From an uncultured virus (IMG/VR IMGVR_UViG_3300010391_001807) (taxonomy: Duplodnaviria > Heunggongvirae > Uroviricota > Caudoviricetes): DNA of 64,000 bases. Where the stretch lies: IMG/VR virus record IMGVR_UViG_3300010391_001807, one strand, 5' to 3'. This document shows, piece after piece, positions 9,314 to 59,999 of the stretch (within the stretch, counting starts at the first letter, position 1; each line of letters opens with the position of its first letter). The notes beneath the pieces were generated by a model. It saw nothing but the letters and a program-made list of their open reading frames with translations. It searched no databases and was not told the DNA's origin. The position numbers and the translations under genes were made by a program.

Positions 9314-9314
9314 A

Positions 9315-12300
9315 TTAAGGAGTGCTGGTATCCACGACTAGAGTTGGGGTGAACAAAGGGTAAGTACCATATATTCTGATTCTTTTATAACACAAATTGC
9401 CAATGGCGTTGATAAAGTATAAAGTTATCTCTCCTTCAGAAGTAATGAAAGCACCAATTCTTTGCTGTGGTACATCACTAGAATTATTATATTTTAAAAT
9501 TCTAATAGCAGCATAAACATTAGAACCAGCAGTTTTTGCTCCCCAGTTATTTGACTTCCCAGATACAGAATAAGAATCATATGTATCTTCAGTAAAACTA
9601 GGTGTAGTATCTGAAGCATCACTACCTTCAGACCATTGTTTAGCAAGCCATTGTTCCAAACCACTAGTAACTTTTCTATCAGTGAAGGCAGTATCTCCCT
9701 CAACCATATATAAAAAGTTTAAACTATTATGATAAGGTTCTAAATTCTCAAATTTCTTACTAGCATCCACCATTTTGAATCTCTCTAAAGTAGTCCCCGG
9801 ATGTGGCAATAAACGCATGAATATCTTCCCTCCAGCCCAGAAAAACAACATGTAAATTTTAGTATGATCATTATATAACACGACCATATGTTTTGTCTGG
9901 AATGAAGTATCATTAGGGGCTAAATTTATTACCCCTCCAGCACGGTTATAACCCAAATCAGCCACTGGGAAAGGTTCTCCAAACCAATAACCACTATTAT
10001 GACTTTCTCGACAAAATACTTTCCCTAAAGCATTTTTGGCCTCGTCATGATTAGTAGTCAATAAACTATAGAATACATATATATAACCCCGAGGGTCAAC
10101 AAATAAATCAGGGAAAGATTCATCGGCGGCTAATGGCTTCCCGCCAGAACCCAAATTATTAAATCGACCAGGATTTACTGTTTTATTCAATGTGTCTTGA
10201 GTTGGAGAAAATACTTGTGCGGCAGTAGGCATGGATGTGATCCAACTATCCTCAGTAACTTGTCCATCAACAAAAAATAGAGGCCCCACGGCAGCAGAAT
10301 CAGTCCCAAAAACCAATCCTGGATTCATTCTCTTTAATACAATCATTCCACCCTGAGATGTATTTTTAAAATTATTGGCTCTATAACCAGCAAAATAAAG
10401 TGAATAATCCGTCAAATCAACAGCCCCTCCTATCATTTTCATGTCAGAATTGAATACTACTTTACCAGTTGAACCATAAAAATTATTACCAAAAGGATTT
10501 TGCCAATTCTGAGACGTGCCATCATAATTTACTAGCATAACAATGTTAGACTGTTGATTATCAGAATCAAATTGATCATCTTCATAGAAAAGATAACGGG
10601 GTTGAGCATTACCTCCATAAAACCTTCTGGCCAGTTGTACATCTGGGGACGCTGTTATAATCAAGGGGTTTTTCCCTGAAACAATATTTGTGCCACCAGT
10701 CCTGACAATAAACTCCGGCATACCTCTATCTGGAGTATTATAGGCAGGATTTTGGAATACAGATAAGAAATTTGTAGCTGAGGCAGCCCCACCGACCTCT
10801 ATCCTTTGACGAGCTAACAAACTTTCGTTGCCCAACAACTCAGATTGGCGATTCGCACTAACACTTGCTACAGATTGAGTACCAACGGCAGTTCTGACTC
10901 GCATTGCTTTCTGGGATGTTTCATCGGCACTAAAATTACTGCCACTATTAGGGTTGGCTTGTAAAAGACCAGCCTGATCTATAATTTCAAAACAAGCCCC
11001 TTGAGGCATTTCAATGAACCAAAATGGGGAAAACATCCAGCCATATAAATACCAAAAACTAGTTTTCATTAATGAGGTAGGGACTAATGAATATAAAACC
11101 AAACTGGCAGCATCAGGCACAAAATAATAATCTGCACTCCCAAAAGTCCTACTAGTTGTCAATGGTAATCCTTCATACCAATCAGCATTACCACGAGAGA
11201 ATCCTGGTTTGGGGCCACCAGTAATGTCTAAAGTAGCTCCATTAAATGATATTCTAAAACCATCAAAATCTATGCATGTAAACCCTGAATGAAAATTTTG
11301 AGGATTCCGAGATGAAACATTAGTCGAGATGGTTCTATTTTTAAAAGCATAAACATGAACTCTAAGCATCAGTCTTGAATTGGGGTCTGTGATGACTGTT
11401 GCTGCTGTCGTGCTAGCCTCCAAGGTAAGATTACCAGTAAACTCAGCATTGCCATCATTCCCCGAAGTATCAATTAAGAACCAGTTTGTTCTGACCAAAC
11501 TATAAGAAGTTAAATCGTCACTCCCTGCGGCCAATAATTCAAAATACACCCAGGCATTAAATAATGAGTTATTAGTGAAGAAATTAGCATCAACTTTAAA
11601 TATTGTGGTCGGGTTGATGACTGATCCACCTACTAAAGTTGATGTTTGGTCCGAAGTAAAAACCGCCATGTCTCCATATTGAAATTTACTAGCATCCAGG
11701 ACTCCAACATTATTTCTCGTAGCGGCAACGCTCAGTCTGCCTCCATTAATAATGGTGTCTGTGTCATGGGCTAATAAACCATAAGCATTTAATCCATTGT
11801 AACCACCGGCCCCACTGCTAGGTGGGGTGAAACGAGTATATGCATTGTTTTTGGTGGGCGTAGTCAAATCCAAAAAATTACCCCATAATTCATAATCTCT
11901 AAATGGTGGCGGAGCATATGTCTCTCCATTTGCCGCCGCCCGAGATTGAGAATCTGAGGCTGCATTATCTGCGTTTATGGAAGCCTGCGATACACCACAA
12001 GATTGAGTAGTTAAGTAATTATACGATAGCACTGTATAAGCTAACACATAAGGGTCTTGTTGAGGCAAAATCACCCCTGACCTAACCTCAGTTATCATGG
12101 TTTGGAAATTAGCCTCGGTTTCACCAGACCAAGATAATTCGACTGCAGGATAATTCAAATCTGTCGATGGATTATATTTTGCACCTGTAGCCACAGGAAC
12201 ATTGGCTGCCCATACTTGGACTACTAATCGTACCAAACCAACCCCAGGCATCTTTTTAGCTAGATCAAAAAGTATTTGTTTATTGAATGGGTCATTTGGC

Positions 12301-39610: not shown

Positions 39611-40705
39611 CTAATATCCCTTAAAGGACATTCTAAAGAAACGACTGCGTTGCCCAGGAAGTTGGTAGGACGGTGTAACATTTATCCCGATAAGAGGGAA
39701 TGACTCAATAGGTATGACCTTAGCGGCATCGGCGAACTGTGTTTTATAACTTTCCATCAAATTGCTAAGATCAGGAACTTTGCCATCAGGGTCTAAGAAA
39801 ACCAATCTTCTTTCACGTTGTAGAAGCATTAAAGACAATCTTCGGAGCAACCAAAAAGAAGCTCCGGCGACTAAGGCATAATCCCATCTGCGAGGCATAT
39901 TACCAATTGTACCATAACTTTCGGCTCGGCCACCCTTACCAATGCCAGGGCGTGAAATTAAATCACCCGCAGCTAAGAACAATGCATCATTTAATTCTTT
40001 GGGGCTAAATACCTGGAACTGATAATCAACCAAAATGTTATCATACCAATCAATACTAACCGGCTGCCCTGAAGAATCTACAAAATAAATATTCCCATTA
40101 TAATCTGGATACCATTCTAAACTGGAATAGGTCTTACTAGCCGCATAGGTAGGAGGGTTGCCTACGGATGTGACCTGAGTTACTAAATTAGTTGTGCCCC
40201 TTTGTGGTAAAACCATGTAGGCATCTTTAGAGCCTGCCGCAAAAGTGGTGTAGTTACTCCCTGACATCGGGGCTCTGGAAATGTAAAGCCTTGGTCTTTG
40301 GAAATAATCCCAGGCACCCCAAGATGCTACATAACCTTTATTTCTCTCATCATTAGTGAAGTATAATTCTTCCATGTAAACCGGGAGCCTCATGAAAGGA
40401 TCCATCTCATAGGCGAGGCTGGCTCTTAAAAGTAAGTCCTCTCCCCACATTGGTTGGCTGGTAGCTAAAACGGTGTCATTAACATCTTCTTCTTGGATCT
40501 TGTAAAAATTGCTGATACCATAACCTAGAACCTGATCTATGTATTCATTATCAGGCCAATTAACTGTGTCAATTGAGGTATAACTGGCATCAAGGTGTGT
40601 CCCCCTCATAATGCGATAGTGGTCAACACCAGTTAAAACTTGGCGTTCCCATGTTAAATAAATGCCCTGGCCTTCATAGGCGGCAAGTAGCGGCTGCTGT
40701 GCCAT
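39611..40705 (-). CDS. Putative head completion/neck protein with N-terminal FN3-like domain
   Basis: IYLTW...HYRIMRG; C-terminal FSPKELNDAL...WDYALVAGA adaptor-like helices; RBS GGAGG. Confidence 0.5.
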   Translation of the reverse strand: MAQQPLLAAYEGQGIYLTWERQVLTGVDHYRIMRGTHLDASYTSIDTVNWPDNEYIDQVLGYGISNFYKIQEEDVNDTVLATSQPMWGEDLLLRASLAYEMDPFMRLPVYMEELYFTNDERNKGYVASWGAWDYFQRPRLYISRAPMSGSNYTTFAAGSKDAYMVLPQRGTTNLVTQVTSVGNPPTYAASKTYSSLEWYPDYNGNIYFVDSSGQPVSIDWYDNILVDYQFQVFSPKELNDALFLAAGDLISRPGIGKGGRAESYGTIGNMPRRWDYALVAGASFWLLRRLSLMLLQRERRLVFLDPDGKVPDLSNLMESYKTQFADAAKVIPIESFPLIGINVTPSYQLPGQRSRFFRMSFKGY

Positions 40706-40737
40706 TATGGATCCCTCCAATTAAAATGCACTTTAAT

Positions 40738-40776: not shown

Positions 40777-41946
40777 CTATATAAATCTTGCCTCAATTTG
40801 TCTATTATAGGCATCAGATTGACCTGTCTTATAGGCTTGTTCTCTCTCTAGATCTATAGATTTTTGGTCTAAGGTAGGATTGACTTTGCACGAAGGTAAT
40901 TGTATCATTAAGATACGATTGTCATAAAAACTTTGTTCATATAATTCAAAAAATTTCCCATCTCGGCTTATTGGCGTAGATGTACAAATAATTTTACCAT
41001 TTTTATCAAATTTATAATTATATTTTTTAAATTTATTATATAATTCATTATTAATTGATGAAGCCATTTCATCAATAATAACAATACATAATCCATGCAT
41101 AGTAGAATCACTTAAATTTTCGTTAGGGTATGTTGATAAAAGACAAATAGAACCTTCTTTTTGGGGTAATATTTCAAAATCTAGTTTTTGGTTTATAGAT
41201 AGATCTTGTGCGGTCCAAAATTTTACACTCCTATTCCGAGAATTACTATGGTCAATACTATTAGGACTCATTTTATTTTTAAAATAAGGACTATTTAAAA
41301 TTATAGTTTTAATTCTATCAAAGGAATATTTTGCCTGCTGTTCTGAAAAAGAAACATATAAAATAGTAATATCATCATCTTGTTTTAGATCACCTAAAAA
41401 GCCTTGTGGACTTCCCATTTCTATTAATCTATAAGTTTCATATAGAGATATAATTATTTCTATAGTAGATTTAGATGATCTTCTACCCATAACTAACAAT
41501 AATTCATTGAATTCAGCCCCAATTTTATTAATGACTTGATCTTTAACAGAATTATCAATAATTGAATCAGAATCTGAAGATAAATCATTATTAATCATTT
41601 CCCACTCATTTTGAGTTAATTCTAGATGCCTATTACCATCTAAACCCATATAGAATATTTTTAAAATTAATTTTTGCCAGGGCCAGAGTTTTATATTTAA
41701 ATAATAAGGGGATTCACAAAATTCAAATATATCTACATAACTAAATGGATTTTTATCATTTATTTTTTTATTATAAATATTAATTGAACTTATTGTTTCT
41801 TTCTGAATTTTTTCTTCAATTAATTCTCTGATTATGTCAGTTATATTAGCAGAAATTAAATCTGACTTTTGTTTATCTGCAGCAATTTTTAATAAATCCT
41901 TATAAATACCATCATCAATCCTAAAACTCACCGTCTTATCTAACAT
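40777..41946 (-). CDS. RHH-domain fusion to terminase large-subunit ATPase domain (no nuclease domain)
   Basis: N-term KTVSFRIDDGIYKDL...ITDIIRELI (RHH); LWPWQKLIL, LVMGRRSSKST (Walker A-like), IIIDEMA (Walker B), CTSTP, LPSCKVNP; ends at QIEARFI. Confidence 0.8.
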   Translation of the reverse strand: MLDKTVSFRIDDGIYKDLLKIAADKQKSDLISANITDIIRELIEEKIQKETISSINIYNKKINDKNPFSYVDIFEFCESPYYLNIKLWPWQKLILKIFYMGLDGNRHLELTQNEWEMINNDLSSDSDSIIDNSVKDQVINKIGAEFNELLLVMGRRSSKSTIEIIISLYETYRLIEMGSPQGFLGDLKQDDDITILYVSFSEQQAKYSFDRIKTIILNSPYFKNKMSPNSIDHSNSRNRSVKFWTAQDLSINQKLDFEILPQKEGSICLLSTYPNENLSDSTMHGLCIVIIDEMASSINNELYNKFKKYNYKFDKNGKIICTSTPISRDGKFFELYEQSFYDNRILMIQLPSCKVNPTLDQKSIDLEREQAYKTGQSDAYNRQIEARFI

Positions 41947-41958
41947 ATAAATCACCTC

Positions 41959-44865: not shown

Positions 44866-45369
44866 TTAAAATATTTCTTGGAGGGTACAGGCTGAGGTCA
44901 CATTTAACAAGTATCTGAACTCTAATGATAATGCAGGAGGGGCTAATCTGGCGTCAATGACTGCATTAACGACCGGGAGCATGTCTCGGGAGGTAAAATC
45001 ATAGTGCTGATTGATCAAAGACCATTCATATATGGGGTCATTCTTATCAGTCAAAACCAAATAATTCATTTTTACAACAAGAGGAGGAGGCAAATTCCAG
45101 GTTATCGAAGGCCAATTGATATCTTTAACTTGACTTCCTTCTAAAAATGGAGTATAAATAGTGTTGTCGTTGTCTTGTAAGTCATACAGGGCCTCAGTGT
45201 CATGGCCGTAAAATACCACCAGCACCTTATTATTATCACTGAAATATCTTAAGACGTGTTGGGACATAATGTCATCTTCAATCTTGACATTATTATCTAA
45301 AAAATCTTCTTTAACATATTTGGATTTAAGTGATTCTATGAGAGTTTGCTTCCAAGAGTTTGTGCTCAT
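44866..45369 (-). CDS. Hypothetical protein
   Basis: 167-aa ORF. Confidence 0.55.
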   Translation of the reverse strand: MSTNSWKQTLIESLKSKYVKEDFLDNNVKIEDDIMSQHVLRYFSDNNKVLVVFYGHDTEALYDLQDNDNTIYTPFLEGSQVKDINWPSITWNLPPPLVVKMNYLVLTDKNDPIYEWSLINQHYDFTSRDMLPVVNAVIDARLAPPALSLEFRYLLNVTSACTLQEIF

Positions 45370-45372
45370 AAC

Positions 45373-46152
45373 CTAACCTTTATCTATCACGCCCCGTTGA
45401 ATACCCTGTTCGTTGAAAATGCCCATACCTATCGTCTCTGTAAAAATGGCCTGATTATCTACCCTCCAACATTTAATCCCGTCTCTTAACTGTAAAGGCC
45501 CTATCATGTCTGTGCAGATGCAAAAATTAGATATTACATCATTGCCTAACTGCTGATTAGTAATTAACTTATAAATCTTACCATTTAAGGCGATGTCTGC
45601 TACATAAGGCATTAAATCATGAGCAACTGCCCGAAATGATGAGTGCTTGCTGAAAACTTTAACTAGAGAATAATTGTCACACACGATGTACTGGGGCAGA
45701 AATCCTTTTTGCACCATGGTATTAATACTTTTCTCTACAGCCGGAATTATCTGATCAAATTTGGATTTTGAAAAGATACCCATGGTTTTAGTAGTATAAC
45801 ATAATAACTTGGAAAAATAAACATTCTCCAACTCAGCCAGTTGAATTCCAGCCCATTCAATCGCATCCTCATCATCTAAATCAATGATATCAGAGCTTAT
45901 GTTAAAATTATCTAATGTTACGTTTGGATAATTATGATGTTTTTTAGGGAATATGGAAGGAACACCATATTTATTTAATCTCCATTTTTCATTGGGATTG
46001 TCCAAACGATAATTTTTTACTTCATCATTACTGAGAATTTCGTGTGTCAATACCATACGGGCCGACGAAATTGTATCCAAGTTTTCTGTAATGATATTCA
46101 TGTCTACGGGACCGTTGGTTTGATAACGATGTTTTATGCCATTCACTTTCAT
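45373..46152 (-). CDS. Highly diverged paralog of the major capsid protein
   Basis: Collinear matches to MCP: NLDTISSARMVLTHEIL~SLEYQAIGRKLLMVDEL; NYPNVTLDNF~TNPSIKLNEI; DMIGPLQLRDGI~EFVGAIPVRQDI; TETIGMGIFN~YEELGMAVIN. Confidence 0.7.
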   Translation of the reverse strand: MKVNGIKHRYQTNGPVDMNIITENLDTISSARMVLTHEILSNDEVKNYRLDNPNEKWRLNKYGVPSIFPKKHHNYPNVTLDNFNISSDIIDLDDEDAIEWAGIQLAELENVYFSKLLCYTTKTMGIFSKSKFDQIIPAVEKSINTMVQKGFLPQYIVCDNYSLVKVFSKHSSFRAVAHDLMPYVADIALNGKIYKLITNQQLGNDVISNFCICTDMIGPLQLRDGIKCWRVDNQAIFTETIGMGIFNEQGIQRGVIDKG

Positions 46153-46289
46153 AATATTGTCCTCTCTTATTATTTTAGGTAGGAGAGAGGCTAAAACCTA
46201 CTTTTAATCTTATTTAAAATCTGTATCCTATCCCCGGTTTCATCAATCTCCAAATTTTTCCTGTATTTAATGCTGTCTATTTTTATTTT

Positions 46290-46577
46290 CTAACACTCCT
46301 TATCATCTATAGTCAGTAAAATTATATCATTATTTACTGATTCTGAAATATTAATATCTGTGAACCAAATATGGCCTTCTTTAGCCGTTATTTGTTTCCC
46401 TTCCCCATAATCATCAAAATTAGAAGACGCTAATTTATCATATGTTTTTTTATTCATTAATATTTCAGAGCAAACAGAACCATCTTGTTCAATTAACTTC
46501 ATCTCATTTTTAATCATATTCCAAATGGACACACCATAATTTTTATCTTTTGTCTTAATAATATAACTTTTCCTCAT
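46290..46577 (-). CDS. Small protein resembling an internal fragment of the major capsid protein
   Basis: KLIEQDGSVCSEILMNKKTYDKL...GHIWFTDINISESVNNDIILL vs MCP ALIEEHELVGAKVVCHPYRYKDI...GHIWTADIHVSTMVPRSTIYVL. Confidence 0.7.
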   Translation of the reverse strand: MRKSYIIKTKDKNYGVSIWNMIKNEMKLIEQDGSVCSEILMNKKTYDKLASSNFDDYGEGKQITAKEGHIWFTDINISESVNNDIILLTIDDKEC

Positions 46578-46597
46578 TTTAAAACAAATCCTTTCAA

Positions 46598-46735
46598 TTA
46601 ATAATATAACTCCGATCCCCTGTCTCGCTTAAAATCATAACGACAATATAACTTTTTGATGATCATTATAACTTTCTGAACTTCTTCCTCAGACATTCGC
46701 TGTTTTTTGGTTTTGGAGGAGCGGTTAGTTTTCAT
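46598..46735 (-). CDS. Small hypothetical protein (45 aa)
   Basis: ATG at 46735 after GGAGG, adjacent to the upstream stop; MKTNRSSKTKKQR... Confidence 0.4.
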   Translation of the reverse strand: MKTNRSSKTKKQRMSEEEVQKVIMIIKKLYCRYDFKRDRGSELYY

Positions 46736-46951
46736 TTAATAATCCCTCCATGAATATACAAGTTTCTGCATTGCATTTATCTCGTCCCAAGCAAAATAAT
46801 CATTGTTTTCATTTGAGTGGCCATCTATTGGTTTGCTTCTAACCCATAAAAAATCATCAGTTTGAGGCCCAATGATTATCTTGTATTTAATCTCTGAGAT
46901 GTTTTCTACTAGTTCTAGTAGAGAATGGTATGCTATGGAGTCTATTTTCAT
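46736..46951 (-). CDS. Small hypothetical protein
   Basis: 71-aa ORF tightly packed in the operon. Confidence 0.55.
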   Translation of the reverse strand: MKIDSIAYHSLLELVENISEIKYKIIIGPQTDDFLWVRSKPIDGHSNENNDYFAWDEINAMQKLVYSWRDY

Positions 46952-46952: not shown

Positions 46953-47750
46953 TTATACCGCCTGAGATAATAATATGGTTCGCACTTTTTCTGCGTGTTC
47001 TGGGTTGGACATTATTTTAGAAATCTTGATTTGGACGGAAGGAAAGCCGCCTTGGGAATATATTCTATCAATATTTCTGTATTTACACCCTAAAATTTCA
47101 TTTAATTCATTTTCTCTAATAACTACCATATTATTAAATTTTTCTGCAGTTTGAATTGTTTTCCATTCTCCAGTTAGAGTTCTCGGCAAAGTACCTTTAA
47201 CTTCAATCCAATGATTAGGCTTTCCACTTGTATCAATTACAGTAAAATCTGGAATATAATATAGTATTTTGTCAGGGGAATCAGGATGAATGACAGGCAC
47301 TCTATCTATTTCTCTTCCATATTTTATCCCCAACGCATCCATTGACATTGCTATATATATTTCCCATCTTGAATGGAATCTCATCCCATTCCAGTCTATC
47401 ATATTAACGCAACCACAATTGGTCGAGCCACCACTAATTAAATTAGGGCGACTCACCCAATCTTGGTTACCGCAAGCACATATACACCACCAATAAGCAT
47501 GGCAATCATCTTTAATTTCGTATTTATCGGTGACAGTCCATTTATCGTGTATTTCTCCTGTCATATCAATGACTGGCTTGGGTTTTCTTGAACAGAGGCA
47601 TTGGGTTTTTCTCCATTCATCTTCTCGAATACTACCAGATCTTGGGCAACGTTGACATTTATAGTCCCATTTCCAGTGCCCACCAGATTTTTCATCTGAT
47701 TTCCCTGTTATTAATCTATTATTTATTATTTCCCCTGTTAAATCTTTCAT
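46953..47750 (-). CDS. Putative free-standing homing endonuclease (Cys-rich DLTG repeats plus PD-(D/E)XK domain)
   Basis: DMTG...WTV...YWWCICACGN...NLISGGSTNCGC, then FHSRWE, YIPDF and WIEVKG. Confidence 0.75.
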   Translation of the reverse strand: MKDLTGEIINNRLITGKSDEKSGGHWKWDYKCQRCPRSGSIREDEWRKTQCLCSRKPKPVIDMTGEIHDKWTVTDKYEIKDDCHAYWWCICACGNQDWVSRPNLISGGSTNCGCVNMIDWNGMRFHSRWEIYIAMSMDALGIKYGREIDRVPVIHPDSPDKILYYIPDFTVIDTSGKPNHWIEVKGTLPRTLTGEWKTIQTAEKFNNMVVIRENELNEILGCKYRNIDRIYSQGGFPSVQIKISKIMSNPEHAEKVRTILLSQAV

Positions 47751-48121
47751 ATTGTATTTTTCGTATTAGAGCAACCACAATTAGTTGAAGCATTATTGAT
47801 TAAATTGGGGCGACTCACCCATCGCTGGTTCCCGCATTCACAATTGCATAACCAATATGCATGAGTATCATCTCTTATTTCATATTTATCAGTGACTGTC
47901 CATTTGCCATATATTTTCCCCGACATATTTTTTACTCTCTGGGGTCTATGTTTGGACATAATACATTGACAACTATTTTTAATGGCATCGGATTCTCTTA
48001 CAGTACCAATTTTTCCACAATCAGTACACTGATAACTCCATAACCAATGACCACCAGATTTTTGATCCGACAGCCCTGTAATCAGCCGATTATTTAATGT
48101 TTGTCCCGTTAGGTCTTTCAT
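47747..48121 (-). CDS. Truncated paralog of the adjacent endonuclease (Cys-rich repeats only)
   Basis: MKDLTGQTLNNRLITG...YWLCNCECGNQRWVSRPNLINNASTNCGC; no nuclease domain. Confidence 0.75.
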   Translation of the reverse strand: MKDLTGQTLNNRLITGLSDQKSGGHWLWSYQCTDCGKIGTVRESDAIKNSCQCIMSKHRPQRVKNMSGKIYGKWTVTDKYEIRDDTHAYWLCNCECGNQRWVSRPNLINNASTNCGCSNTKNTI

Positions 48122-48128: not shown

Positions 48129-48157
48129 ATTATACAACAAAAGCCCCTTGGAGTCAA
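48129..48157 (-). promoter_or_regulatory. Sigma70-type promoter embedded in the capsid-gene terminator
   Basis: TTGACT-17 bp-TATAAT; ATG follows 7 nt after the -10 box. Confidence 0.75.
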
Positions 48158-48167
48158 GGGGCTTTTG
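48138..48167 (-). terminator. Intrinsic terminator after the major capsid gene
   Basis: CAAAAGCCCCTTG-gagt-CAAGGGGCTTTTG perfect hairpin. Confidence 0.85.
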
Positions 48168-48220: not shown

Positions 48221-49075
48221 CTAGACAATACTAATCTTCGCTGTGGCATAGTCGTTAATTACCGCCATGCCTAATTCCTCGTATACGACCCATCCTAGAC
48301 GTAAATTCTTAGGATCGTCTGCAGGTAATACTGTGATATCCTGACGTACAGGAATCGCACCGACAAACTCGCCTGGAGCTAAGACATAGATGGTGCTTCG
48401 AGGAACCATTGTGCTAACGTGAATATCTGCTGTCCAAATGTGACCGAACAGACCGGACATAATGACATCTCTCTGAGTTGCCTCATCGAAGAAATCTTTA
48501 CCCCAGTTTCTGATATCCTTGTAGCGGTAAGGGTGACAAACGACTTTGGCACCGACTAATTCGTGTTCTTCGATAAGAGCAAGAGCGACGTTAATGTTTG
48601 AAGGGTCCAATGCACCAGTGATGGTCAAGGTATGGACTGCAGGAACGGCGTTGGAGATAACCTTGAAAACTTCGGTATCTTCTTGTCGTTGCAGAGAATC
48701 CTTGGCACGGATCTGGGCACGGTCTACAATATAGTAACGACGGGCACGAATTTCGTTCAGCTTGATGGAAGGGTTAGTAGCAATTTCGAACGTAGGTACT
48801 AACAATTCTTCGGCTTCAACATACATGTCGGGCACACGCCCACGTTTAGGAATAACATAACTCTTAACAGCGATGTCTCTCTCGTAACGAGGAAGGGCAC
48901 CCTGAGGGAGTTCGTCAACCATAAGTAATTTACGACCGATAGCCTGATACTCTAAGCTAATTTTGATAGGTTCTACCATGGCCTGGGCCAAGGCAACTCT
49001 ACCTTCAGGAGAATCAAGTGCTTGGGCGACTACTTGCTCTTTCATCTCATTATCTTGTCTTTTCATCATACTCAT
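48221..49075 (-). CDS. Major capsid protein (HK97-type fold, short)
   Basis: ALAQAMVEPI...RKLLMVDELPQGALPRYERD...VPTFEIATNP...GWVVYEELGMAVIN; strong RBS; follows protease, scaffold and decoration genes; followed by a terminator. Confidence 0.9.
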   Translation of the reverse strand: MSMMKRQDNEMKEQVVAQALDSPEGRVALAQAMVEPIKISLEYQAIGRKLLMVDELPQGALPRYERDIAVKSYVIPKRGRVPDMYVEAEELLVPTFEIATNPSIKLNEIRARRYYIVDRAQIRAKDSLQRQEDTEVFKVISNAVPAVHTLTITGALDPSNINVALALIEEHELVGAKVVCHPYRYKDIRNWGKDFFDEATQRDVIMSGLFGHIWTADIHVSTMVPRSTIYVLAPGEFVGAIPVRQDITVLPADDPKNLRLGWVVYEELGMAVINDYATAKISIV

Positions 49076-49123: not shown

Positions 49124-49726
49124 TTATGCACCAGCGAACACCCATCGGAAGGGAAGTAAACTGTTGCTAACAGCACCAGTTAATCTTGCCATTACGGTAA
49201 GGGTAGTTAAAGCCTGTCCACCATCATCGACAAGCTTTCCAGCATTAGCGAGAATAGCGAAAGTCCAACCATCGTTGATTGCATAAGCAGGAGCAGCACC
49301 AGAGTCGGCATTGGCACCAGATGCAGATGCGGTTGTAACATATTGGTCGCTCATGAATTCTCCACCAACGGAGAAGACTGTTACGCCACGTTTTGCGATA
49401 CCAGAGTCAGTCCAGTTTGTAACGTTGCTGATGGTTTCGTCTTTGTAATCACCAAGTCTGCGGGCTGGCCTCATATAGGGTACCTGATAGACAGGATCGA
49501 TTGGAGCAATGGTATTGCCACTATTGGTTGCGTCGTCTCCGGCGAGACCAGCAATGAAAGCACCAAATTCCGTTCCTGCGGTTGTTCTGGATGCCTTGAT
49601 TAATTCAGGCTCTCCAGTTGTTGAGTTGGTCTGCAAGGCTACCACCATTCCGGCAAGAATGCCAGAAGATGCTGTAGCTAGATAACCACTATTGTAAAAC
49701 ACAGCATTTTTAACGAATAACGCCAT
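49124..49726 (-). CDS. Capsid decoration/cement protein
   Basis: 200-aa Ala/Gly/Thr-rich ORF directly upstream of MCP; AGMVVAL, GLAGDD and GGEFMSDQY motifs. Confidence 0.65.
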   Translation of the reverse strand: MALFVKNAVFYNSGYLATASSGILAGMVVALQTNSTTGEPELIKASRTTAGTEFGAFIAGLAGDDATNSGNTIAPIDPVYQVPYMRPARRLGDYKDETISNVTNWTDSGIAKRGVTVFSVGGEFMSDQYVTTASASGANADSGAAPAYAINDGWTFAILANAGKLVDDGGQALTTLTVMARLTGAVSNSLLPFRWVFAGA

Positions 49727-51996: not shown

Positions 51997-54900
51997 CTAT
52001 TCACTTAAAGGCGGCAATAAATAAGAAACGGTAAAGATCAACTTGTCATCATGTTTCTTACTAGCGGTTACGTTGATTTTCCCTATCGTCCCACACTTGT
52101 CACAATAGTAATCACTCTTGGCCCGGTGGACTTGCTTGTTGCCACAGGCAATACAAACAGTTCCCGGTGGTTTAGGGCCAGCAATCTGTTCATCGGTCAA
52201 ACCTTCGATCTTATGCTTGGCCAACTTCACAAATTGCTCAGGAGTTCCATACCAACTAACTGAGGCAGCCATTGGCATTCCTCCGCCCATTGGAGCCCCG
52301 CCCATTGGAGCGGCAGGGCCAGCAGGTGGAGCCCCACCAGCAGGACCAGCAGCAGGAGGGCCAGGAGGTGCTAATGCAGCCCCCAAGCCCTCAGGAGCAG
52401 TTTCTTCTCCAGGCTGATCGGCTGTTTCATCAGGGGTTACGATATTATCAAGAGAAATCTTGATGTCGAACTTGGTATGACAATCTCCACATTCGCCTCT
52501 TCCGACTGCTAAGTCAACATTGGTTGAACCACAAGCAGGACAGATGGAACCGATTGGTTTGATGTCACCAGGGGCAGCCATTGAATCTAGATTAGTATCT
52601 TCATCTTCGGCTCCCTCAGGACCAAGTAATGCGGAAAGACCAGGGCCTCCCATTGCGTCTGATGGAGGAGCACCTGGGGCACCGGCCCCACCAACATCTC
52701 CCATTCCTCCGCCGCCAGCAGGAGGTGGAGCGGCCTGGGCTTCTCTAATTAACGCTTCTCGGCGTTCCTTACGATTAGCTTTGGCCATTGGAGTCATGAA
52801 TGTTTCATCTATTCCACCGCCCTCTACTCCACTCTCAACTCCGGCATGAAATTCTGGAGTTTCAGGAGTATTCATTTCAATAGGTTCGTCACCAAATTCT
52901 TTGACGATTGTGCTTTGAATGGTTGCGACAACCTCTCGGGTATCATTATTAACACTGAGTCTCGTAAAATTAAAAGTCTCAGGGTCTACTCTATAACCTT
53001 TGTTCTGTAAAAAAGCGATGGAATAATCTCTCACAGTGTCTGCAAATTCATCACTTGAAGGATCTGCGTTGGGGATTTCGTCCATGCTCATGCGGATTTC
53101 GCGAACTGTGTCAGTTCGGTCGCTCATTGAGGCAGCTTCTTTGACATTATCATTTCGGGCTTGGATTGCAGCATTAACCAAGATTTTGCCATTCTCTCCA
53201 CTGGCCGCTAATTTCTTAGCAACTTGCCAAATGAGATGACTAGGCATTTCTTTCTTATCATTGCTTTCTAAGGCCTCAGCATAATCTGCCAAAGAGGCAA
53301 ATAATGAGGTTTTAATATCTTCTAAACCAATATCTTCCGTACTGGCTTGTTTGCCCCAATACTCTTTTCGCTCTTTGTTACGGATTCTAGACGCTACTGA
53401 ATTTGGTAATCTTTCGGTCTCAATGGACATTAAAGCTTCTTGATTGTCTTCAATGCCGTCAATGACCTCAAATATCTCTTCTGGCGTTGCCCCAGTTTCA
53501 CTAGCGGTTTCGGCTACTGCGAAAAGAGCCACTTTTAAATGTGAGCGGTCCAATGGTTGGTCAGATACTTCAGAAATTGATGCATAAACCGCACCTCTAA
53601 TTAAATCTTCCTGACTCTTTTCATCATCAGAAGATAATATAATATTTTGAGGGTTATTGTTAGCAATTTTAGTAATTACTCTCTTCATATCCCCTCTAGG
53701 TGCTTCTGCAATAATCTTCAAAGCATCTTTGATATTCTTAGGCGAAATATCTTCGTTTTCGATGAAGATGTCAGCGATTCTCTCATTAAAGGAAACATCA
53801 ATAGCCTTTAGTGCTGGCTTGTCCAGCCCTAACTCTGCTCTTTCTCTAGTAGCCAATCTCTTTTTATAATCTTTTTCATTCATGAACGCAGCTACATCAG
53901 TAAGTTTGTGGTCAGTTGCAAATTTTTCTGCAAATTCGATGGCTTCAGATGGAGATACTCTAGCTTCAACAACCATATGAGCCAAGGCGGTTTGAGCGGC
54001 TCCGGCAACATGTACTGGATTAGCAGATTTGGACCTACGGCTTTCTAGACGATGCTCATGAACACGAACATCTTCTCCTTTGCGAACGTCACCCAGTTGT
54101 TCTTCTTGCACATCTTCTGGATTACCCTTGCGGCCCCAGACTGTAGCACTGTCTTCGGAAAGCTGTACTTCTCGAACATCAGTTGGGTTGCCCGTGCGGA
54201 CTGCAGAAATCTGTTCTTCTTGAACATCTTCAGGATTTCCCTTTCGTTTGTCACCAATCTGTACCTCTTGGACATCTTCTGGGTTGCCAGAACGTTTCTT
54301 TGAGATCTGTTCTTCTTGAACGTCACTAGGGGTCTGAACGGAGACGGCGGCGGTCTTAATAAAACCAACAAATTCATTCATTAATTTGTCAGTAACAGAA
54401 GCAATGCGATTCTCACGAATGGCATCGGCATCATCACTGTTTAATGTAGTTGGCTCCCAATCTGTTTTCTGGTCATTGTAATAACCAAGAATTTCTTCAT
54501 CTGTTTTGTCACTAATGATAACCTTATATCGGCCATTATCACGACTGGCGATGATTGGTTGTTCTACAACAGTAGCCATTTTGTTCATAATTGCACTGGC
54601 TACTCTTTCATTTAAACTTTTCATTGATACTCCTCCTTCTTGAATAGTTGATTCAAATGTTTCTTCAGATTTTATATCCAAAGAATCTAAAATAGAGCCT
54701 AGCCTGACATTGGCATTATTCAGATTTTGAGAAAACTTATTCCATTTTTTCTCAATGCCAGTAGATACTGTTTGTAAGAATCCAGGAGGCTCCAACGCCG
54801 GACTCACTTGGAATGGGACATTATTAACTGCATTCCCAAGTACATTTGCAACGGGTTGTGTCTGTAGGGGTTGAGCAGGAGCTTCTTGCCCCATTGCTCT

Positions 54901-56199
54901 TCCAACATCCCCCGCAGCCGTATAATCATTAGGAGCCGCAATCTGTTGAGACTGATCTGGCTGTCCTAACCCTCCTTCGTTGCCAGGAGGTAGAGTGGCA
55001 GCTTCTGATAAAGTTCCGATACCATCATCGATCATGTCGGATACTTCTTGCTGGATGTCAGCCATGGCTTTAGATAGTTTGGCAACATGAGTTAAATCAA
55101 TGTTGTCTTTTCTGCTTAATAGATTAATGATGACAGATTCAACTTTATTCAATACATCGTTTAATGTATCTAAAATGCTAAACGCCGTCTTCTCCATTCC
55201 AGCAGTCTTGTGCATGTTCTGAATGACCGCCCCAGAAAAGACATCAATTTTTTCCAAAATCCCCTTAGACTCGTCCAGGTAATGAGTTAATTCAAGGCTG
55301 GCCGATGTTGCCCGCCTTTGCATGATCCCTTGGATATTTTGGTCTACCAAACTACTAATGTTACTGGCCGTTCTGCGTAATTTATCAGCATATGTGATAA
55401 CTTCTTGATGTGGTAACACTTTGTCAATCTCACAATTCGCGAAAGCTCCATCGGAAACTATTGATAACTCAATAAATTTCAAATCATGGTTTTCTTCATA
55501 AACAACTTCATCTGTTACCTTTTGGCCTTTTCTCTTCCCTTTATCAATGACGCCACTAAATTTCTTTCCCTTCCTAGTTTTTAAATGGTCACACCATTCT
55601 GATTCCTTCTCTGCTTTATGCCCGCAAAGTGAACACTCAGAAAATTCAACCTGTGCTCCCATTGATACGTCACTTATGGTGCCAATCTGAATGGAACGGG
55701 CAATGTCGCCATAAGCAGCCATATCTACATAAAAAGTACACCAGACGCACTTGTTTTCCTCATCTAATTCAGCAAATATAACCTTGCCCTTTGCTTTACT
55801 TATATCTCCATTTTCATGGTTGGTATAAACCGGAACGCCTTCGAAAGATTTATATGCTGCAATTTTTTTCTTATCACGATCACTTTGTATTTCTCTCTCT
55901 TTAGTTATTTCTTCCCAAGAGAAATAATCGCCATTTTCATTGACTACATTAGCATCAATGGCCCTGGCCCTGACCCATAATAAGTCAGTATCTCTTTTCT
56001 TCATCTCGTCTACAATGTCAAACCCAACGCTCTTGTAATGTTCAATGACATCCTCGGGCTCTTCATATAAATTCTGTTTTCCAATTCTACCTGTGGTATC
56101 AGCCGTGCGAAGCATCTGTGAACGAACCAAATTCCCATCTGGATGTAAAATTTCCATACTATTAATAGGGATTCTTATTTCCCTACGTTCAAATGCCAT
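51997..56199 (-). CDS. Prohead (capsid maturation) protease with very long multidomain extension
   Basis: NENGDYF, KSFEGVPVYTNH, GKVI, DVSMG...CSLCG...CDH and FIELSIVSDGA; located between portal and MCP. Confidence 0.85.
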   Translation of the reverse strand: MAFERREIRIPINSMEILHPDGNLVRSQMLRTADTTGRIGKQNLYEEPEDVIEHYKSVGFDIVDEMKKRDTDLLWVRARAIDANVVNENGDYFSWEEITKEREIQSDRDKKKIAAYKSFEGVPVYTNHENGDISKAKGKVIFAELDEENKCVWCTFYVDMAAYGDIARSIQIGTISDVSMGAQVEFSECSLCGHKAEKESEWCDHLKTRKGKKFSGVIDKGKRKGQKVTDEVVYEENHDLKFIELSIVSDGAFANCEIDKVLPHQEVITYADKLRRTASNISSLVDQNIQGIMQRRATSASLELTHYLDESKGILEKIDVFSGAVIQNMHKTAGMEKTAFSILDTLNDVLNKVESVIINLLSRKDNIDLTHVAKLSKAMADIQQEVSDMIDDGIGTLSEAATLPPGNEGGLGQPDQSQQIAAPNDYTAAGDVGRAMGQEAPAQPLQTQPVANVLGNAVNNVPFQVSPALEPPGFLQTVSTGIEKKWNKFSQNLNNANVRLGSILDSLDIKSEETFESTIQEGGVSMKSLNERVASAIMNKMATVVEQPIIASRDNGRYKVIISDKTDEEILGYYNDQKTDWEPTTLNSDDADAIRENRIASVTDKLMNEFVGFIKTAAVSVQTPSDVQEEQISKKRSGNPEDVQEVQIGDKRKGNPEDVQEEQISAVRTGNPTDVREVQLSEDSATVWGRKGNPEDVQEEQLGDVRKGEDVRVHEHRLESRRSKSANPVHVAGAAQTALAHMVVEARVSPSEAIEFAEKFATDHKLTDVAAFMNEKDYKKRLATRERAELGLDKPALKAIDVSFNERIADIFIENEDISPKNIKDALKIIAEAPRGDMKRVITKIANNNPQNIILSSDDEKSQEDLIRGAVYASISEVSDQPLDRSHLKVALFAVAETASETGATPEEIFEVIDGIEDNQEALMSIETERLPNSVASRIRNKERKEYWGKQASTEDIGLEDIKTSLFASLADYAEALESNDKKEMPSHLIWQVAKKLAASGENGKILVNAAIQARNDNVKEAASMSDRTDTVREIRMSMDEIPNADPSSDEFADTVRDYSIAFLQNKGYRVDPETFNFTRLSVNNDTREVVATIQSTIVKEFGDEPIEMNTPETPEFHAGVESGVEGGGIDETFMTPMAKANRKERREALIREAQAAPPPAGGGGMGDVGGAGAPGAPPSDAMGGPGLSALLGPEGAEDEDTNLDSMAAPGDIKPIGSICPACGSTNVDLAVGRGECGDCHTKFDIKISLDNIVTPDETADQPGEETAPEGLGAALAPPGPPAAGPAGGAPPAGPAAPMGGAPMGGGMPMAASVSWYGTPEQFVKLAKHKIEGLTDEQIAGPKPPGTVCIACGNKQVHRAKSDYYCDKCGTIGKINVTASKKHDDKLIFTVSYLLPPLSE

Positions 56200-56468: not shown

Positions 56469-59400
56469 CTATTGTGCCTGCTTGGGGGAAGTGGCCCCCT
56501 GCTTAGTCATTTCGGGTTCCTCTTGAGCAATTGTCCGATTAATTGGTTGACTCTTCTGGTTAATTGCATTTGTAATGACTTTTACTACATCCTGCATTTT
56601 TTCTTCGATTTCGCCCTCAGTAAATCTTAAAACCAACCACCCCTGTGAGGCAAGCTGGGTGTCACGATAACGATCTTTTTGAACCTTGTCATCATCTATG
56701 TGCCAAGTTTCACCATCGGCTTCGACCGCAACTTTAATGTCTGGGAAAGCACCATCCACTCTAAATTGATGATTACCATTAACTAAATACTGCATGAAGA
56801 ATTTCAACGGATAATTCTGTGACATAACCGCTTGATATAATTTAGCTTCAATAGAGGTCACTGGTGGTTTGTAGCCAATATTTTTATCTTTTTGTTTAGG
56901 ATCTGGAGTTCCCATCAATCCTGCAGTTTTATAATGTTTTGTGATGATTTTGTCATAAACATTTGCATTAGAAGCATACAAGTATGATAATGGATAGCCT
57001 GGGGCTCCCCAGGTTGGAGTAATATCTAATAGAGCAATGGCATCTGCTTCTTCTGGCAATTCACCTCTGGCCCCATTTCCATCAACGATTCTATTCATGT
57101 CTGGCAAAAAGACATTCATGGTTTCAGTTGTTCCTGCAGTGCGAACCATGTTCCCAATATGTTGAGAGGCAGCTACTACTGTTCTATAATTCTCACTTAG
57201 AGCATTAGCTGTTGCTGCGGCAGGAGCCCCACCGGGAGCCCCACCTGGAGCCCCGCCCATGGCTCCTCCAGGCATTCCGCCCTCTGCAACAGGAGGCATT
57301 CCTCCCATATCCCCACCCTCAGGCATGCCACCGCCCATCGCCGGAGGCATTACTGGCCCTCCGCCACCATAACCCCCTCCCGCTACATCTCCCGTGCCTA
57401 CTCCTAATCCAAGATTTGGACTGGCAAACATTTCTGACATTTCCTCTAACCTCATATTCTCAATTTCATTGTCCATATCTAAACCAAGGCCCTCTTCAAT
57501 GAATGTTCTGGCCGATAAATCACCATTAGTCCTGGCCTGCCACATGAATTGTAATTTTTGAGAATTGTCTCTTAATTTTAAGTCATCCCAACGAACTGTT
57601 GGATAAATATACTCTGTTTCTCCTCTTCTATTCTTATGAGTGAACCCATTAAATTCTGCAACTGGCTTGAATACTTTTTCCTCTAACCAGTTAGCAATTA
57701 AATTTCTTACGCTTTCTAAACGCTTGATGACAATTTCTACGGCAACCTGGGCATTAGAATAAGTAGGACCTTCGCCAGATAAAATGGCCTTCGTCAAACC
57801 TAAACCATCAACCATCTCATTTTCAATCTGTTCAACTTCATTAGTTAATTGTAGGACCTTCCCAGAATTACCATGAATACCTATTTTACCATTTCTTTTA
57901 GTAATAAACAATCCAGTTGGTACTTGTAGACACCAAACAATATCATTATATGATTCTTTTGATATGTTTCTAGATCTAATTTCTCTAGTTTCCTGTTTAG
58001 TTTCAGGCCAATAAATTCTATAAATAGGTAATGGCGTATCTGTTTTATTAGTTTTTCTAATAGTTTCCATAGATACTTTAGGATTATATCCAAGTTTAAT
58101 TAAAATTTCTTGAACATTATCTGCTAATTCTTTAGATGTTGTAGAATATCTATTTTTACTTTTATTATTACAAGTGACAATATCTCCGTCACCATCCATT
58201 AAAGCATCTAATAATATGGATAATTGTGATTGTGGCAAGTTTAACATCCATTGTGGGATTTTTTTACCATACGATTTAATACCAAATTCATTCACCAAAT
58301 ATCTAGACAATTTAATATCATGTATTTTAAAATTTCTAACCTTTTCATTATTAATAGATGTTTTATATTTATTCTTAAAACACTTCTCTATATTTGATAA
58401 TATTTTATAATATGAATTATTATTTTCTTTTTGGTATATATATGTAGTTCCATTTAATTTATTTTCTTTGCTTGATCTTTGTTGGCTTCCTTCTGCAATA
58501 TAATATCCAATAAATCTAATAAAATCATTTAACTGTATATCTTTTAATATATCTATATTAGTATATGGATAATGATCTAAAAGAGAGCCAGCCCAATCTA
58601 CAGATGATAAAACTTTATCAAACTCTTGTATTTCATCAGCCCTAACTTTCATCCATTTAAAATCATATCTATTTTCTTCTTTATTCCATTTTCTCTTTTT
58701 TATCCATAACATATGGTTAGGAGTAACTAAAGAATCATAATGCTTACCATGAATATTAATCATCGGCCCATAAGTTTCAGAATTGTAATCATAAATATAT
58801 TTTTCTTCATATTTATAATATTCTAACTTATTATTTTCTGGATTATAGCAAGCAATATTATCATCTTCTAATACATCTGTATATTTTTTGAATCCATTTT
58901 TAGTTAATACTTCTGTATCTGAAGAATAACAAGCTCCAACATAGTCATATTCAAAATCATGGTAAGTGACCAAAGTTGCAATTGGGTCATTAGCGATCTC
59001 TGCTAGTCTGGCTTGCAAATCATCAATATCTTGTTGGCTTGCAGGGCGATTATCACTGCCAATTTTGACAATTTTGATAGGGACAATGTGTCTTTCGGCG
59101 ACGATCCACTGAGCCTGTCGGAGTTTATCCTTGTAGGCTAGAGTAGGAAATAGACGGCGAATTAATGGGACCCCATAGGTTGCATACGGCGGAGCCCCAT
59201 GTTTAAAATGATGGATAGTTAAAGGATCTAGAGGAATTTTCTGGTTGGACCGCACTAATTTCTTAAGATGCTCTGGAATTCTAGCAACCACATCTTTCGG
59301 CTTATTATCCTGAACCAACTTCTTCAATTCATTATTTGGGGTTAAATAGATTCTAGCTGCCTCAGGAGACAATGGCACGGGAATAACTTCCACTGTCAAC

Positions 59401-59999
59401 GGGTCTAAAATGCTAATTCCTGACCAAGATGCTCCAGCATGGTCGCATTCCTCACCACCCTCTGTCATTCCCTGTCCTTTACATTTTGGACAGTCAATTT
59501 CCATCATGACAAAAGCATCACCCATACCGAAATATTCTCTCAAAATCTTGGGCAAAGAAGATTCTAAGTCAATTTTTCTGATCATGTTCTCAAAATATTC
59601 TTTGACCGCTGCATTAGGACAATCTAATTCGAAATGATTCATAGGAAAGTCCGAGAAAAAATCTATGGCCATGGCAATGCGTCCTTCATTTGCTATCCAG
59701 TAACTGCACCACTTGTAGACTTCAGTGCGGTTAGTAGGGATTTGCCATGCAGACGGGGTGTGTTGTGGCTGATAAAAACCTGGAGGGGTTTGAGTAATCC
59801 CCTGTGATTGACTCGTGACTGTTCTACCCCTAGATGCTCTACGGGTATTATCGTAAAAAGACGAATTAACAAAAACAGGAGTTCCTCCTGCCGTGTTCAT
59901 AGCTGGTATGTCGGGTTCTGTGTAAGAAGAGGCAAAATAACTTGCTCCCCTAATATTATTCCCCAATAATCTTCTTGGGGTTCCGGTGCGTTGCAGCAT
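56469..59999 (-). CDS. Portal protein with intein and C-terminal DUF559/Vsr-like domain
   Basis: AIDFFSDFP, REYFGMGDAF, HHFKH...YGVPLIRRLF...PIKIVKIG and ILSGEGPTYSNAQV portal motifs; located upstream of the protease. Confidence 0.85.
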   Translation of the reverse strand: MLQRTGTPRRLLGNNIRGASYFASSYTEPDIPAMNTAGGTPVFVNSSFYDNTRRASRGRTVTSQSQGITQTPPGFYQPQHTPSAWQIPTNRTEVYKWCSYWIANEGRIAMAIDFFSDFPMNHFELDCPNAAVKEYFENMIRKIDLESSLPKILREYFGMGDAFVMMEIDCPKCKGQGMTEGGEECDHAGASWSGISILDPLTVEVIPVPLSPEAARIYLTPNNELKKLVQDNKPKDVVARIPEHLKKLVRSNQKIPLDPLTIHHFKHGAPPYATYGVPLIRRLFPTLAYKDKLRQAQWIVAERHIVPIKIVKIGSDNRPASQQDIDDLQARLAEIANDPIATLVTYHDFEYDYVGACYSSDTEVLTKNGFKKYTDVLEDDNIACYNPENNKLEYYKYEEKYIYDYNSETYGPMINIHGKHYDSLVTPNHMLWIKKRKWNKEENRYDFKWMKVRADEIQEFDKVLSSVDWAGSLLDHYPYTNIDILKDIQLNDFIRFIGYYIAEGSQQRSSKENKLNGTTYIYQKENNNSYYKILSNIEKCFKNKYKTSINNEKVRNFKIHDIKLSRYLVNEFGIKSYGKKIPQWMLNLPQSQLSILLDALMDGDGDIVTCNNKSKNRYSTTSKELADNVQEILIKLGYNPKVSMETIRKTNKTDTPLPIYRIYWPETKQETREIRSRNISKESYNDIVWCLQVPTGLFITKRNGKIGIHGNSGKVLQLTNEVEQIENEMVDGLGLTKAILSGEGPTYSNAQVAVEIVIKRLESVRNLIANWLEEKVFKPVAEFNGFTHKNRRGETEYIYPTVRWDDLKLRDNSQKLQFMWQARTNGDLSARTFIEEGLGLDMDNEIENMRLEEMSEMFASPNLGLGVGTGDVAGGGYGGGGPVMPPAMGGGMPEGGDMGGMPPVAEGGMPGGAMGGAPGGAPGGAPAAATANALSENYRTVVAASQHIGNMVRTAGTTETMNVFLPDMNRIVDGNGARGELPEEADAIALLDITPTWGAPGYPLSYLYASNANVYDKIITKHYKTAGLMGTPDPKQKDKNIGYKPPVTSIEAKLYQAVMSQNYPLKFFMQYLVNGNHQFRVDGAFPDIKVAVEADGETWHIDDDKVQKDRYRDTQLASQGWLVLRFTEGEIEEKMQDVVKVITNAINQKSQPINRTIAQEEPEMTKQGATSPKQAQ
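57867..58931 (-). mobile_element. Intein with LAGLIDADG homing endonuclease (355 aa)
   Basis: Begins A|CYSSDTEVLT; block B VTPNH; FIGYYIAEGS and LLDALMDGDG; ends GIHGN|S; much more AT-rich than the exteins. Confidence 0.93.

Follow-up and report, generated by a model that had tools for sequence, protein, structure and literature searches.

Downstream of the capsid gene of a phage G-like giant phage: a highly diverged HK97-fold paralogue of its major capsid protein and a separate A-domain copy

The 64,000-nucleotide stretch of DNA analysed here (the window), from an uncultured member of the Caudoviricetes (IMG/VR record IMGVR_UViG_3300010391_001807), corresponds to the head module of a giant phage related to phage G, with every long open reading frame (ORF) on the minus strand. 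Downstream of its major capsid protein (MCP) gene lie two ORFs, o259 and o95, which an initial annotation had described as a near full-length and a fragmentary copy of that protein. Both exist on the minus strand where they had been placed, and the gene taken as their parent is a real MCP. Our conclusion that o259 is an MCP paralogue with the HK97 fold, almost full-length and very diverged, draws jointly on profile comparison, hidden Markov model (HMM) ranking, a protein language model and predicted fold, and agrees with the earlier description. The smaller ORF, o95, is, judged by its sequence, a true but distant derivative of the lineage MCP that comprises the A-domain only. With regard to function, the reading that we place first, at a probability of about 0.38, is drawn by analogy: o259 may be a minor shell subunit at special positions of the capsid, most simply the pentameric vertices, of the kind represented by T4 gp24. 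The three genes at the centre of the analysis are:

45373..46152, minus strand: o259, 259 amino acids (aa), an HK97-fold MCP paralogue, strongly diverged and close to full length
46290..46577, minus strand: o95, a 95-aa ORF whose residues 22-86 copy the A-domain region of the MCP (MCP residues 161-229)
48221..49075, minus strand: MCP, 284 aa, of the phage G gp27 type (phrog_2522 'major head protein', E 1.4e-69)

The relationship between o259 and the MCP lies beyond the reach of pairwise comparison. BLASTP finds nothing better than E 4.7, and the Smith-Waterman score of 31, set beside a shuffle mean of 31.8, places the pairwise signal at chance level. The same applies to the resemblance between TETIGMGIFN and YEELGMAVIN on which the initial annotation had drawn for o259: taken pairwise it does not rise above chance, although it falls in aligned columns of the profile comparison. 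An exhaustive HMMER search assembled an o259 family comprising P0001 (90%), P0122 (44%), P0124 (27%) and two fragments, to which the viral contig L002 adds a further member (E 1.8e-16). Comparisons of this family with the MCP profile by hhalign reach E 0.0013 (210 columns) and E 0.002 (217 columns), in a collinear alignment that places residues 28-257 of o259 on residues 44-284 of the MCP. Over this span o259 keeps the spine helix, the A-domain and the C-terminal core of the MCP, while the first ~43 residues of the latter, the N-arm region, are replaced by a leader of 27 residues. When 143 other ORFs downstream of MCP genes (60 clusters) were compared with the same two profiles as a control, a probability above 5% was reached only by the o259 relative in L002 and by an ORF of the locus L037 (10194-11150; E 0.0023) that is taken up below.

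Searches in the opposite direction point to the same parent. An HMM of the o259 family, built without any MCP sequence, ranks its own six members first among 6,838 ORF rows. MCPs fill 38 of the 40 rows that follow; they make up 49 of the 6,838 rows, with that of phage G entered twice. The best match outside the family is phage G gp27 itself, aligned over nearly its full length (E 0.0011 in a smaller ORF set). The ESM Atlas feature search, which uses a protein language model, places o259 nearest to clusters labelled 'putative Major capsid protein' and PF25209 Phage_capsid_4, both at 0.96. No curated family recognizes o259, with no match in Pfam at E <= 10 or in PHROGs at E <= 0.01; the window MCP is likewise without a Pfam capsid match. 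A tblastn search of o259 against 50,697 phage records gave no match, and a word-index protein search, run with o259 and then with its alignment, returned close relatives only. Viral-contig scans with o259, P0122 and P0124 found none, the L002 copy retrieved only itself, and a PDB sequence search with the o259 profile matched only DiaA (E 0.52) and no capsid chain.

The predicted structure of o259 was obtained with AlphaFold2 (AF2) from seven family sequences and no templates; a first model, from six sequences and with a predicted local distance difference test score (pLDDT) of 38.5, was not used. The model has helices at residues 95-119, 132-148 and 160-165 and strands at residues 155-158, 183-189, 192-198 and 210-213. 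A helix of 25 residues leads into a helix/strand/helix/hairpin unit whose pLDDT is 65-80, an arrangement that corresponds to the long spine helix, the A-domain and the P-domain strands of the HK97 fold. In a comparison with 48,161 PDB chains, the highest-scoring matches include T4 gp24 (Z 8.6, with 153 residues aligned), the capsid protein of mycobacteriophage Douge (Z 8.5) and the lambda MCP (Z 8.0). Of the 50 best matches, 47 are entries for phage or virus capsids or for encapsulins, aligned across model residues ~86-259. The HK97-fold similarity that the initial annotation had named as the check on its proposal is thus found for o259. The score of T4 gp24 lies within one unit of those of six capsid proteins from unrelated phages, and an entry for the SaPIbov5 procapsid that includes Ccm stands at rank 48 (Z 5.5).

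The o259 gene is maintained among close relatives. In four close metagenome loci (L042-L045) it is 90% identical to the window copy, with the MCP, where present, at 98-99%. Against the 90%-identical copies in L043-L045, o259 shows a ratio of non-synonymous to synonymous substitution rates (dN/dS) of 0.070, from 70.5 synonymous and 29.5 non-synonymous differences; the corresponding values are 0.044 for the MCP, 0.083 for the downstream gene o330 and 0.164 for the decoration protein. From these substitution patterns o259 is a working gene under purifying selection, and the neutral decay that had been considered as a way of dismissing it is not observed. Its 90% cluster has eight members, one of them on 10 contigs. 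The MCP and o167 are represented among contigs from the RNA library X4, as is the 3' third of o259 at 93% identity; DNA can be present in such libraries. The adjoining gene is:

44866..45369, minus strand: o167, a conserved partner gene that starts 3 nt past the o259 stop and has 90% identity in L042-L045

In all four close loci o259 is followed by o167, a zinc-ribbon gene and o330. In L002, whose MCP is 85% identical to that of the window, a member of the o259 family lies directly 3' of the MCP gene, and homologues of o167 (L002:12612-13100, E 3e-5), the zinc-ribbon gene and o330 come later. The core order MCP, o259, o167, zinc-ribbon gene, o330 is conserved, with mobile DNA at varying points. 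In L002 an IS607-like serine recombinase and a TnpB gene (10329-12575) stand between the o259-like and o167-like genes, and an HNH gene is found further on. We also considered o167 as an MCP-like protein and rejected it (hhalign against the MCP, E 0.86).

In the case of o95 the relationship to the MCP is visible by pairwise alignment. BLASTP aligns residues 26-86 of o95 with residues 165-229 of the MCP at 17 identities in 65 (26%; E 4e-5), and the correspondence of GHIWFTDINIS with GHIWTADIHVS, previously offered as evidence of copying, lies inside this significant alignment. The Smith-Waterman score is 60, against 27.1 +/- 4.2 for shuffled sequences, none of which reaches 60 in 2000 trials. 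The ORF also matches phage G gp27 (E 1.35e-4) and, by hhalign, a 30-sequence MCP profile (E 1.8e-4), and an MCP HMM run on all six-frame window ORFs of at least 25 aa matches the MCP and o95 only (E 5.7e-4 for the latter). The ESM Atlas model of o95 has a pLDDT of 0.67 and a predicted template modelling (TM) score, pTM, of 0.61, and compares with capsid-protein clusters at TM 0.61-0.64 by query in four of the eight rows shown. Neither Pfam nor PHROGs assigns o95 to a family, the sole Pfam row being a chance match to UDPGT (E 0.11); tblastn against the 50,697 phage records gave no match, and a viral-contig scan found none. A genome-contig scan returned three matches in Acidobacteria metagenome-assembled genomes, which were rejected as pattern-selected chance because they were driven by the 8-mer NFDDYGEG inside an unrelated protein of 429-476 aa without an MCP-HMM match. 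No remainder of the MCP frame was found in the window past the o95 stop, and the idea that o95 is a fragment of an o259-family member or of the L037 paralogue was likewise rejected (E 0.78 and 1.7, respectively).

The distribution of o95 is quite different from that of o259. Its 90% cluster is a singleton, and it is missing from all four close relatives L042-L045. It belongs to a short segment that is likewise without counterpart in those loci:

46310..46664, minus strand: the o95 cassette, unique to the window genome, 355 bp at 27.0% GC

For comparison, the GC content is 38.5% in the window and 45.7% in the MCP gene. A DNA contig of another study (run X2) joins position 46210 to position 46639 without this cassette, with 29 other letters between. 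The reading frame of o95 is nevertheless intact, and only one in 20,000 shuffles of its DNA stays open. No RNA contig lies over o95, a result that is uninformative.

The surroundings of these ORFs are those of a phage head module. The window MCP shares 51.1% identity with gp27 of Bacillus phage G, whose genome is 497 kb, and a profile of 30 MCP relatives retrieves PDB entry 6wkk, 'Gp27 major capsid protein', at E 1.4e-112. The family is abundant in metagenomes (1045 proteins at E <= 1e-5). The head-module genes around o259 are those for the portal, protease, scaffold-like protein, decoration protein and MCP, and PHROG scans of the window also name a head-tail adaptor and a terminase fragment. 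Among them are:

49124..49726, minus strand: gene in the decoration-protein position upstream of the MCP (200 aa), in synteny with phage G gp26 'capsid decoration'
51997..56199, minus strand: protein of 1400 aa that contains a prohead protease domain and is the parent of o71, the mini-copy described below (phrog_18299 'head maturation protease', E 1.6e-17)
56469-59999, minus strand: portal, from the PHROG scan

Homologues of the decoration-position gene are present in 37 loci, and direct comparison with phage G gp26 shows no similarity. In the locus L020 two adjacent matches to this protein lie upstream of the MCP (6506-6913 and 7352-7759), a possible tandem duplication. The large-terminase match in the window is limited to a 392-aa ORF (40777-41955, minus strand) and to profile positions 279-454 of 807; adjoining it is a 369-aa ORF (39611-40720, minus strand) that is conserved in relatives. 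The terminase of the window may be split or unusually organised.

A terminator-like hairpin and a sigma70-type promoter that had been reported past the MCP gene are both present as consensus sequence matches:

48138..48167, no strand: palindromic terminator-like hairpin past the MCP, a sequence match

Embedded in this hairpin is a TTGACT-17-TATAAT site (48157-48129; 11 of 12 consensus positions), which ends 8 nt before the ATG of o136 at 48121 and lies ~1.5 kb upstream of o95. The region shows no enrichment of promoter-like sites, with 26 found and 20.6 +/- 4.6 expected. The separate or earlier expression of the two ORFs that the initial annotation had suggested stays a conjecture for this site. 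The o136 ATG lacks a Shine-Dalgarno sequence, and the best sigma70-like site of the region stands directly before it; from this arrangement the o136 mRNA may be leaderless.

Between the MCP and o259, DNA homology to the close relatives is broken from ~48128 to 46211, short junction pieces excepted, and the content of this island differs in each of the five genomes compared (the window and L042-L045). Besides the o95 cassette, it contains in the window:

47747..48121, minus strand: o136, endonuclease-like, N-terminal (DNA-binding-like) part only (phrog_374 'HNH endonuclease', E 1.5e-18)
46953..47750, minus strand: o265, free-standing and homing-endonuclease-like, with an N-terminal phrog_374 part (E 1.5e-10) and a C-terminal nuclease part
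46736..46951, minus strand: o71, an MKIDSI.Y leader followed by a mini-copy of the front part of the prohead protease (33% identity over 66 aa, E 4e-9)
46598..46735, minus strand: o45, small basic ORF of which only the first ~24 codons are common to relatives
46194..46289, minus strand: remnant ORF with the shared leader, ATA replacing ATG (IKIDSIKYRKNLEIDETGDR...), of which intact ATG-started versions occur in L043 and L044

The likely start of o136 is the ATG at 48121 and not the TTG at 48157. It is 61% identical to o265 over the N-terminal 119 aa, and the nuclease part is found in o265 only; o265 further matches phrog_15137 'endonuclease' (E 2.2e-5) and phrog_9019 (E 5.6e-4), and is present, absent or replaced among the close relatives. 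L035 has the tandem o136/o265 pair as well, L045 has a single copy and L044 carries a different endonuclease, and in L042 (2-697) a TnpB fragment interrupts an endonuclease gene.

Pieces of capsid genes occur next to such nucleases in other loci. Three loci have short relics of the MCP, much less diverged than o95, a short way downstream of the MCP gene and beside homing endonuclease genes. The one in L029 (10650-10715), 22 aa long and 68% identical to the MCP C-terminus, stands behind a 500-aa LAGLIDADG gene and looks like the footprint left when an endonuclease inserted at the end of the gene. The others are a relic of 44 residues (43% identical) in L002 (8929-9048) and, on the opposite strand, one of 37 residues (32% identical) in L037 (9063-8953). 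Recombination around the nucleases does scatter pieces of the capsid gene. In the window, o71 and o45 separate o95 from o265.

The MCP is not the only head protein of which the island holds a part. The o71 ORF matches residues 45-109 of the 1400-aa protease protein of the window, lacks the rest of the protease domain, and is also similar to phage G gp19 (E 5e-6). A viral-contig scan with o71 gave a 13-residue match, which was disregarded. When all 921 window ORFs were compared with one another at E < 1e-3, the relation between o71 and the protease was the sole paralogy apart from strand echoes of o136 and o265 and repeats internal to two other genes. In L043 (1544-1801) and L045 (1910-2269) island ORFs copy residues 300-356 of the window portal (E 9e-8 and 4e-8, respectively), and these two are 54% identical to each other, with in-frame indels between them.

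Several of the island ORFs begin alike. A leader of the form MK[IV][DHN]x[IV][KAR][YH] heads o259, o71, the ATA remnant and five types of ORF in L042-L045. This pattern was derived from the very sequences on which it was tested; in the window it has four matches (46152, 46286, 46951 and 21096, all on the minus strand), each at an ORF start, and none in reversed translations. The match at 21096 is the start of a 17-aa ORF. There is also a 30-nt junction repeat. The leader could be either a recombination junction or a targeting tag.

A second MCP-like paralogue was encountered in L037, whose MCP is 84% identical to that of the window. There a LAGLIDADG gene (9077-10000) is followed by a 319-aa ORF (10194-11150) in which an N-terminus resembling the ribbon-helix-helix (RHH) domain (Pfam RHH_3, E 0.013, below cut-off) is joined to an MCP-like body; it is this body that reached the hhalign value mentioned above, over 186 columns.

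The initial annotation had offered three roles: decoy, dominant-negative inhibitor and minor vertex capsomer. We favour a structural or assembly role for o259 because of its place in the head module, its synteny behind the MCP and the purifying selection acting on it; decoy or interference roles stay open because of its fast long-term divergence and the neighbouring mini-copies of head proteins. The o259 gene encodes a lineage-specific functional paralogue behind the MCP in the head-morphogenesis module; in the scheme that we propose, this protein would occupy special positions of the giant capsid, most simply its pentameric vertices. Because of its position past the MCP terminator, o259 would be produced in smaller amounts than the MCP. 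The o95 ORF is a separate, A-domain-only derivative of an MCP of this lineage, borne on a low-GC cassette in a hypervariable, endonuclease-rich island. It is probably a dispensable product of the recombination that shuffles the island, possibly expressed but unnecessary for building the capsid; alternatively, it may well be a functional mini-protein.

Several observations weigh against this scheme. The o259 model is of low confidence (pLDDT 41.9, pTM 0.45), with only residues ~130-200 reaching 65-80, and a Foldseek search of the model against the PDB gave nothing at E <= 0.001, capsids coming first at E 0.088 or worse. As the Z-scores of 8-8.6 are close to the background that the aligner states for best matches, the case from fold rests on the uniformity of the match list and not on any single score. 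The long-term divergence is also unusual for a shell protein: between the window and L002 o259 retains 21% identity, while the MCP keeps 85% (among other head proteins, the values are 46% for the decoration protein and 37% for the scaffold-like protein). Phage G has no detectable member of the family, nor do 39 of the 40 viral-contig loci with related MCPs, several of which end soon past the MCP; most relatives presumably build their vertices from the MCP itself. The leader of o259 is common to unrelated mini-ORFs of the island, and a vertex role leaves it unexplained, and the RHH-like N-terminus of the L037 paralogue, which occupies the same position, points by its sequence to a non-shell role there. 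As for o95 as a mere by-product, the ORF is intact despite only 26% identity to the MCP, it is predicted by its model to fold by itself, and it derives from the middle of the gene; the endonuclease-linked relics are gene ends, and o95, with its intact frame of 95 codons, is not one of these.

In the main rival account, which we hold to be only somewhat less probable, the island is a source of exchangeable mimics of head proteins that are not part of the shell, o259, o71, o95 and the portal-like ORFs of relatives among them. These might be packaged by means of the leader, as T-even internal proteins are by their capsid targeting sequence, act as decoys or inhibitors of host sensors of capsid, portal and protease, or poison the assembly of competitor phages. 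Three head proteins have diverged partial copies in the island, namely the MCP (o95), the protease (o71) and, in L043 and L045, the portal, and the relation between o71 and its parent stands out as the only one of its kind in the window. These copies are 26-37% identical to parents that evolve slowly and are still open, the portal-like ORFs differing by in-frame indels; the leader recurs at the starts of o259, o71, the remnant and the ORFs of relatives; and the content of the island varies among close relatives. Many bacterial sensors are described as recognising MCP and portal folds in the part of the source drawn on here (bioRxiv 10.64898/2026.01.04.697583). However, the shared leader could be no more than a junction at which recombination has duplicated the first codons of o259 together with its ribosome-binding site, quite apart from the origin of the pattern in the sequences that it describes, and o95 is a singleton without a leader. 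The low dN/dS of o259 (0.07) carries no signature of an arms race between close relatives, and a decoy that resembles the trigger might activate a sensor rather than block it. A bolder form of this idea, which we hold to be unlikely, is that of a shuffling 'self-mimic' locus behind the capsid gene, in which the leader serves as a targeting tag or expression cassette and the mimics blunt fold sensors or sabotage competitors.

It is also conceivable that o259 uses the capsid fold as a regulator or assembly factor without being incorporated, sensing free MCP or proheads and adjusting capsid size or scaffold release; we consider this less probable still. The combination of an RHH-like segment with an MCP-like body in the L037 paralogue, the presence of the SaPIbov5 Ccm entry among the fold matches of o259 and the absence of the MCP N-arm region from o259 would fit such a function. 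Pfam and PHROG scans, however, detect no DNA-binding domain in o259, and hhalign finds no detectable kinship between o259 and the L037 paralogue beyond the MCP (E 0.49). That the similarities are due to chance or composition, and that neither ORF derives from a capsid gene, appears highly improbable. The failure of o259 to show pairwise similarity to the MCP or a Pfam or PHROG match would agree with such a view, as would the weakness of the individual profile E-values (0.001 to 4), but it has to contend with the shuffling results for o95, with the predominance of MCPs after the family members in the HMM ranking and of capsid and encapsulin entries among the fold matches, and with a language-model search that independently names MCP clusters.

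A special-position subunit of the gp24 kind remains our preferred account of o259, and in that event the gene bears on how shells of the T=52 class are closed. Second capsid-fold genes are known from T4 (gp24), and none was found described for phage G-like megaphages in the portions of the literature covered (including PMC12484599 and PMC7824862). More generally, o259 illustrates that capsid paralogues can diverge past pairwise detection under strong selection, and such genes are probably under-counted. The island provides a lead on how giant phages might make accessory proteins from structural folds, and on whether they answer the bacterial sensors of core virion proteins that have lately been described. 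Were the self-mimic idea true, such proteins would form a new class of counter-defence or inter-phage weapons that recycles the structural folds of the phage.

Among known systems, homing endonucleases beside capsid genes offer a parallel to the dynamics of the island, as endonuclease-like genes come and go directly past the MCP. The relics that they leave differ from the ORFs considered here: o95, at 26% identity and with its frame intact, comes from the middle of the gene and is not a recent copy of a gene end, and o259 is a conserved gene. The internal proteins of T-even phages (IPI and others) share a conserved capsid targeting sequence and are encoded at a polymorphic locus (PMC3012670, in the part drawn on here). 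The island resembles them in having exchangeable small ORFs with unrelated bodies behind one N-terminal leader, in or near the head module; there is no sequence relation, and the bodies in the island are diverged copies of head proteins. The HK97-fold Ccm of SaPIbov5 redirects capsid size. Like o259, in whose list of fold matches it appears (PDB 7rwz), it is a capsid-fold protein other than the main shell protein, but it is encoded by a satellite and hijacks the capsid of a helper, whereas o259 is located in the head module of the phage itself.

Phage G gp27 is a top match of both o95 and the o259-family HMM, some relatives in the gp27 family carry the precomputed Pfam label PF25209, and the order of decoration gene followed by MCP gene is common to both phages. 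They differ in that the 7 kb past gp27 contain no detectable counterpart of o259 or o95; gp28, considered as a counterpart of o259, was rejected as unrelated, there being no similarity.

A further known counterpart is T4 gp24, which is present at about 55 copies per virion. In the part of the source drawn on here, gp24 is a close relative of gp23 that forms pentamers at 11 of the 12 vertices and is regarded as a recent, bypassable addition (PMC3012670). Unlike gp24, o259 is undetectable by pairwise comparison with its own MCP, evolves much faster than that MCP and shares its leader with unrelated small ORFs, and it has no specific sequence relation to gp24, whose fold score is tied with those of many capsid proteins. 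The two have in common that they are HK97-fold paralogues of the MCP, located downstream of the MCP in the head module, lineage-specific and probably late additions, and gp24 heads the fold matches of the o259 model. The window thus holds a gp24-type capsid paralogue whose surroundings, with their mini-copies of head proteins, are unusual.

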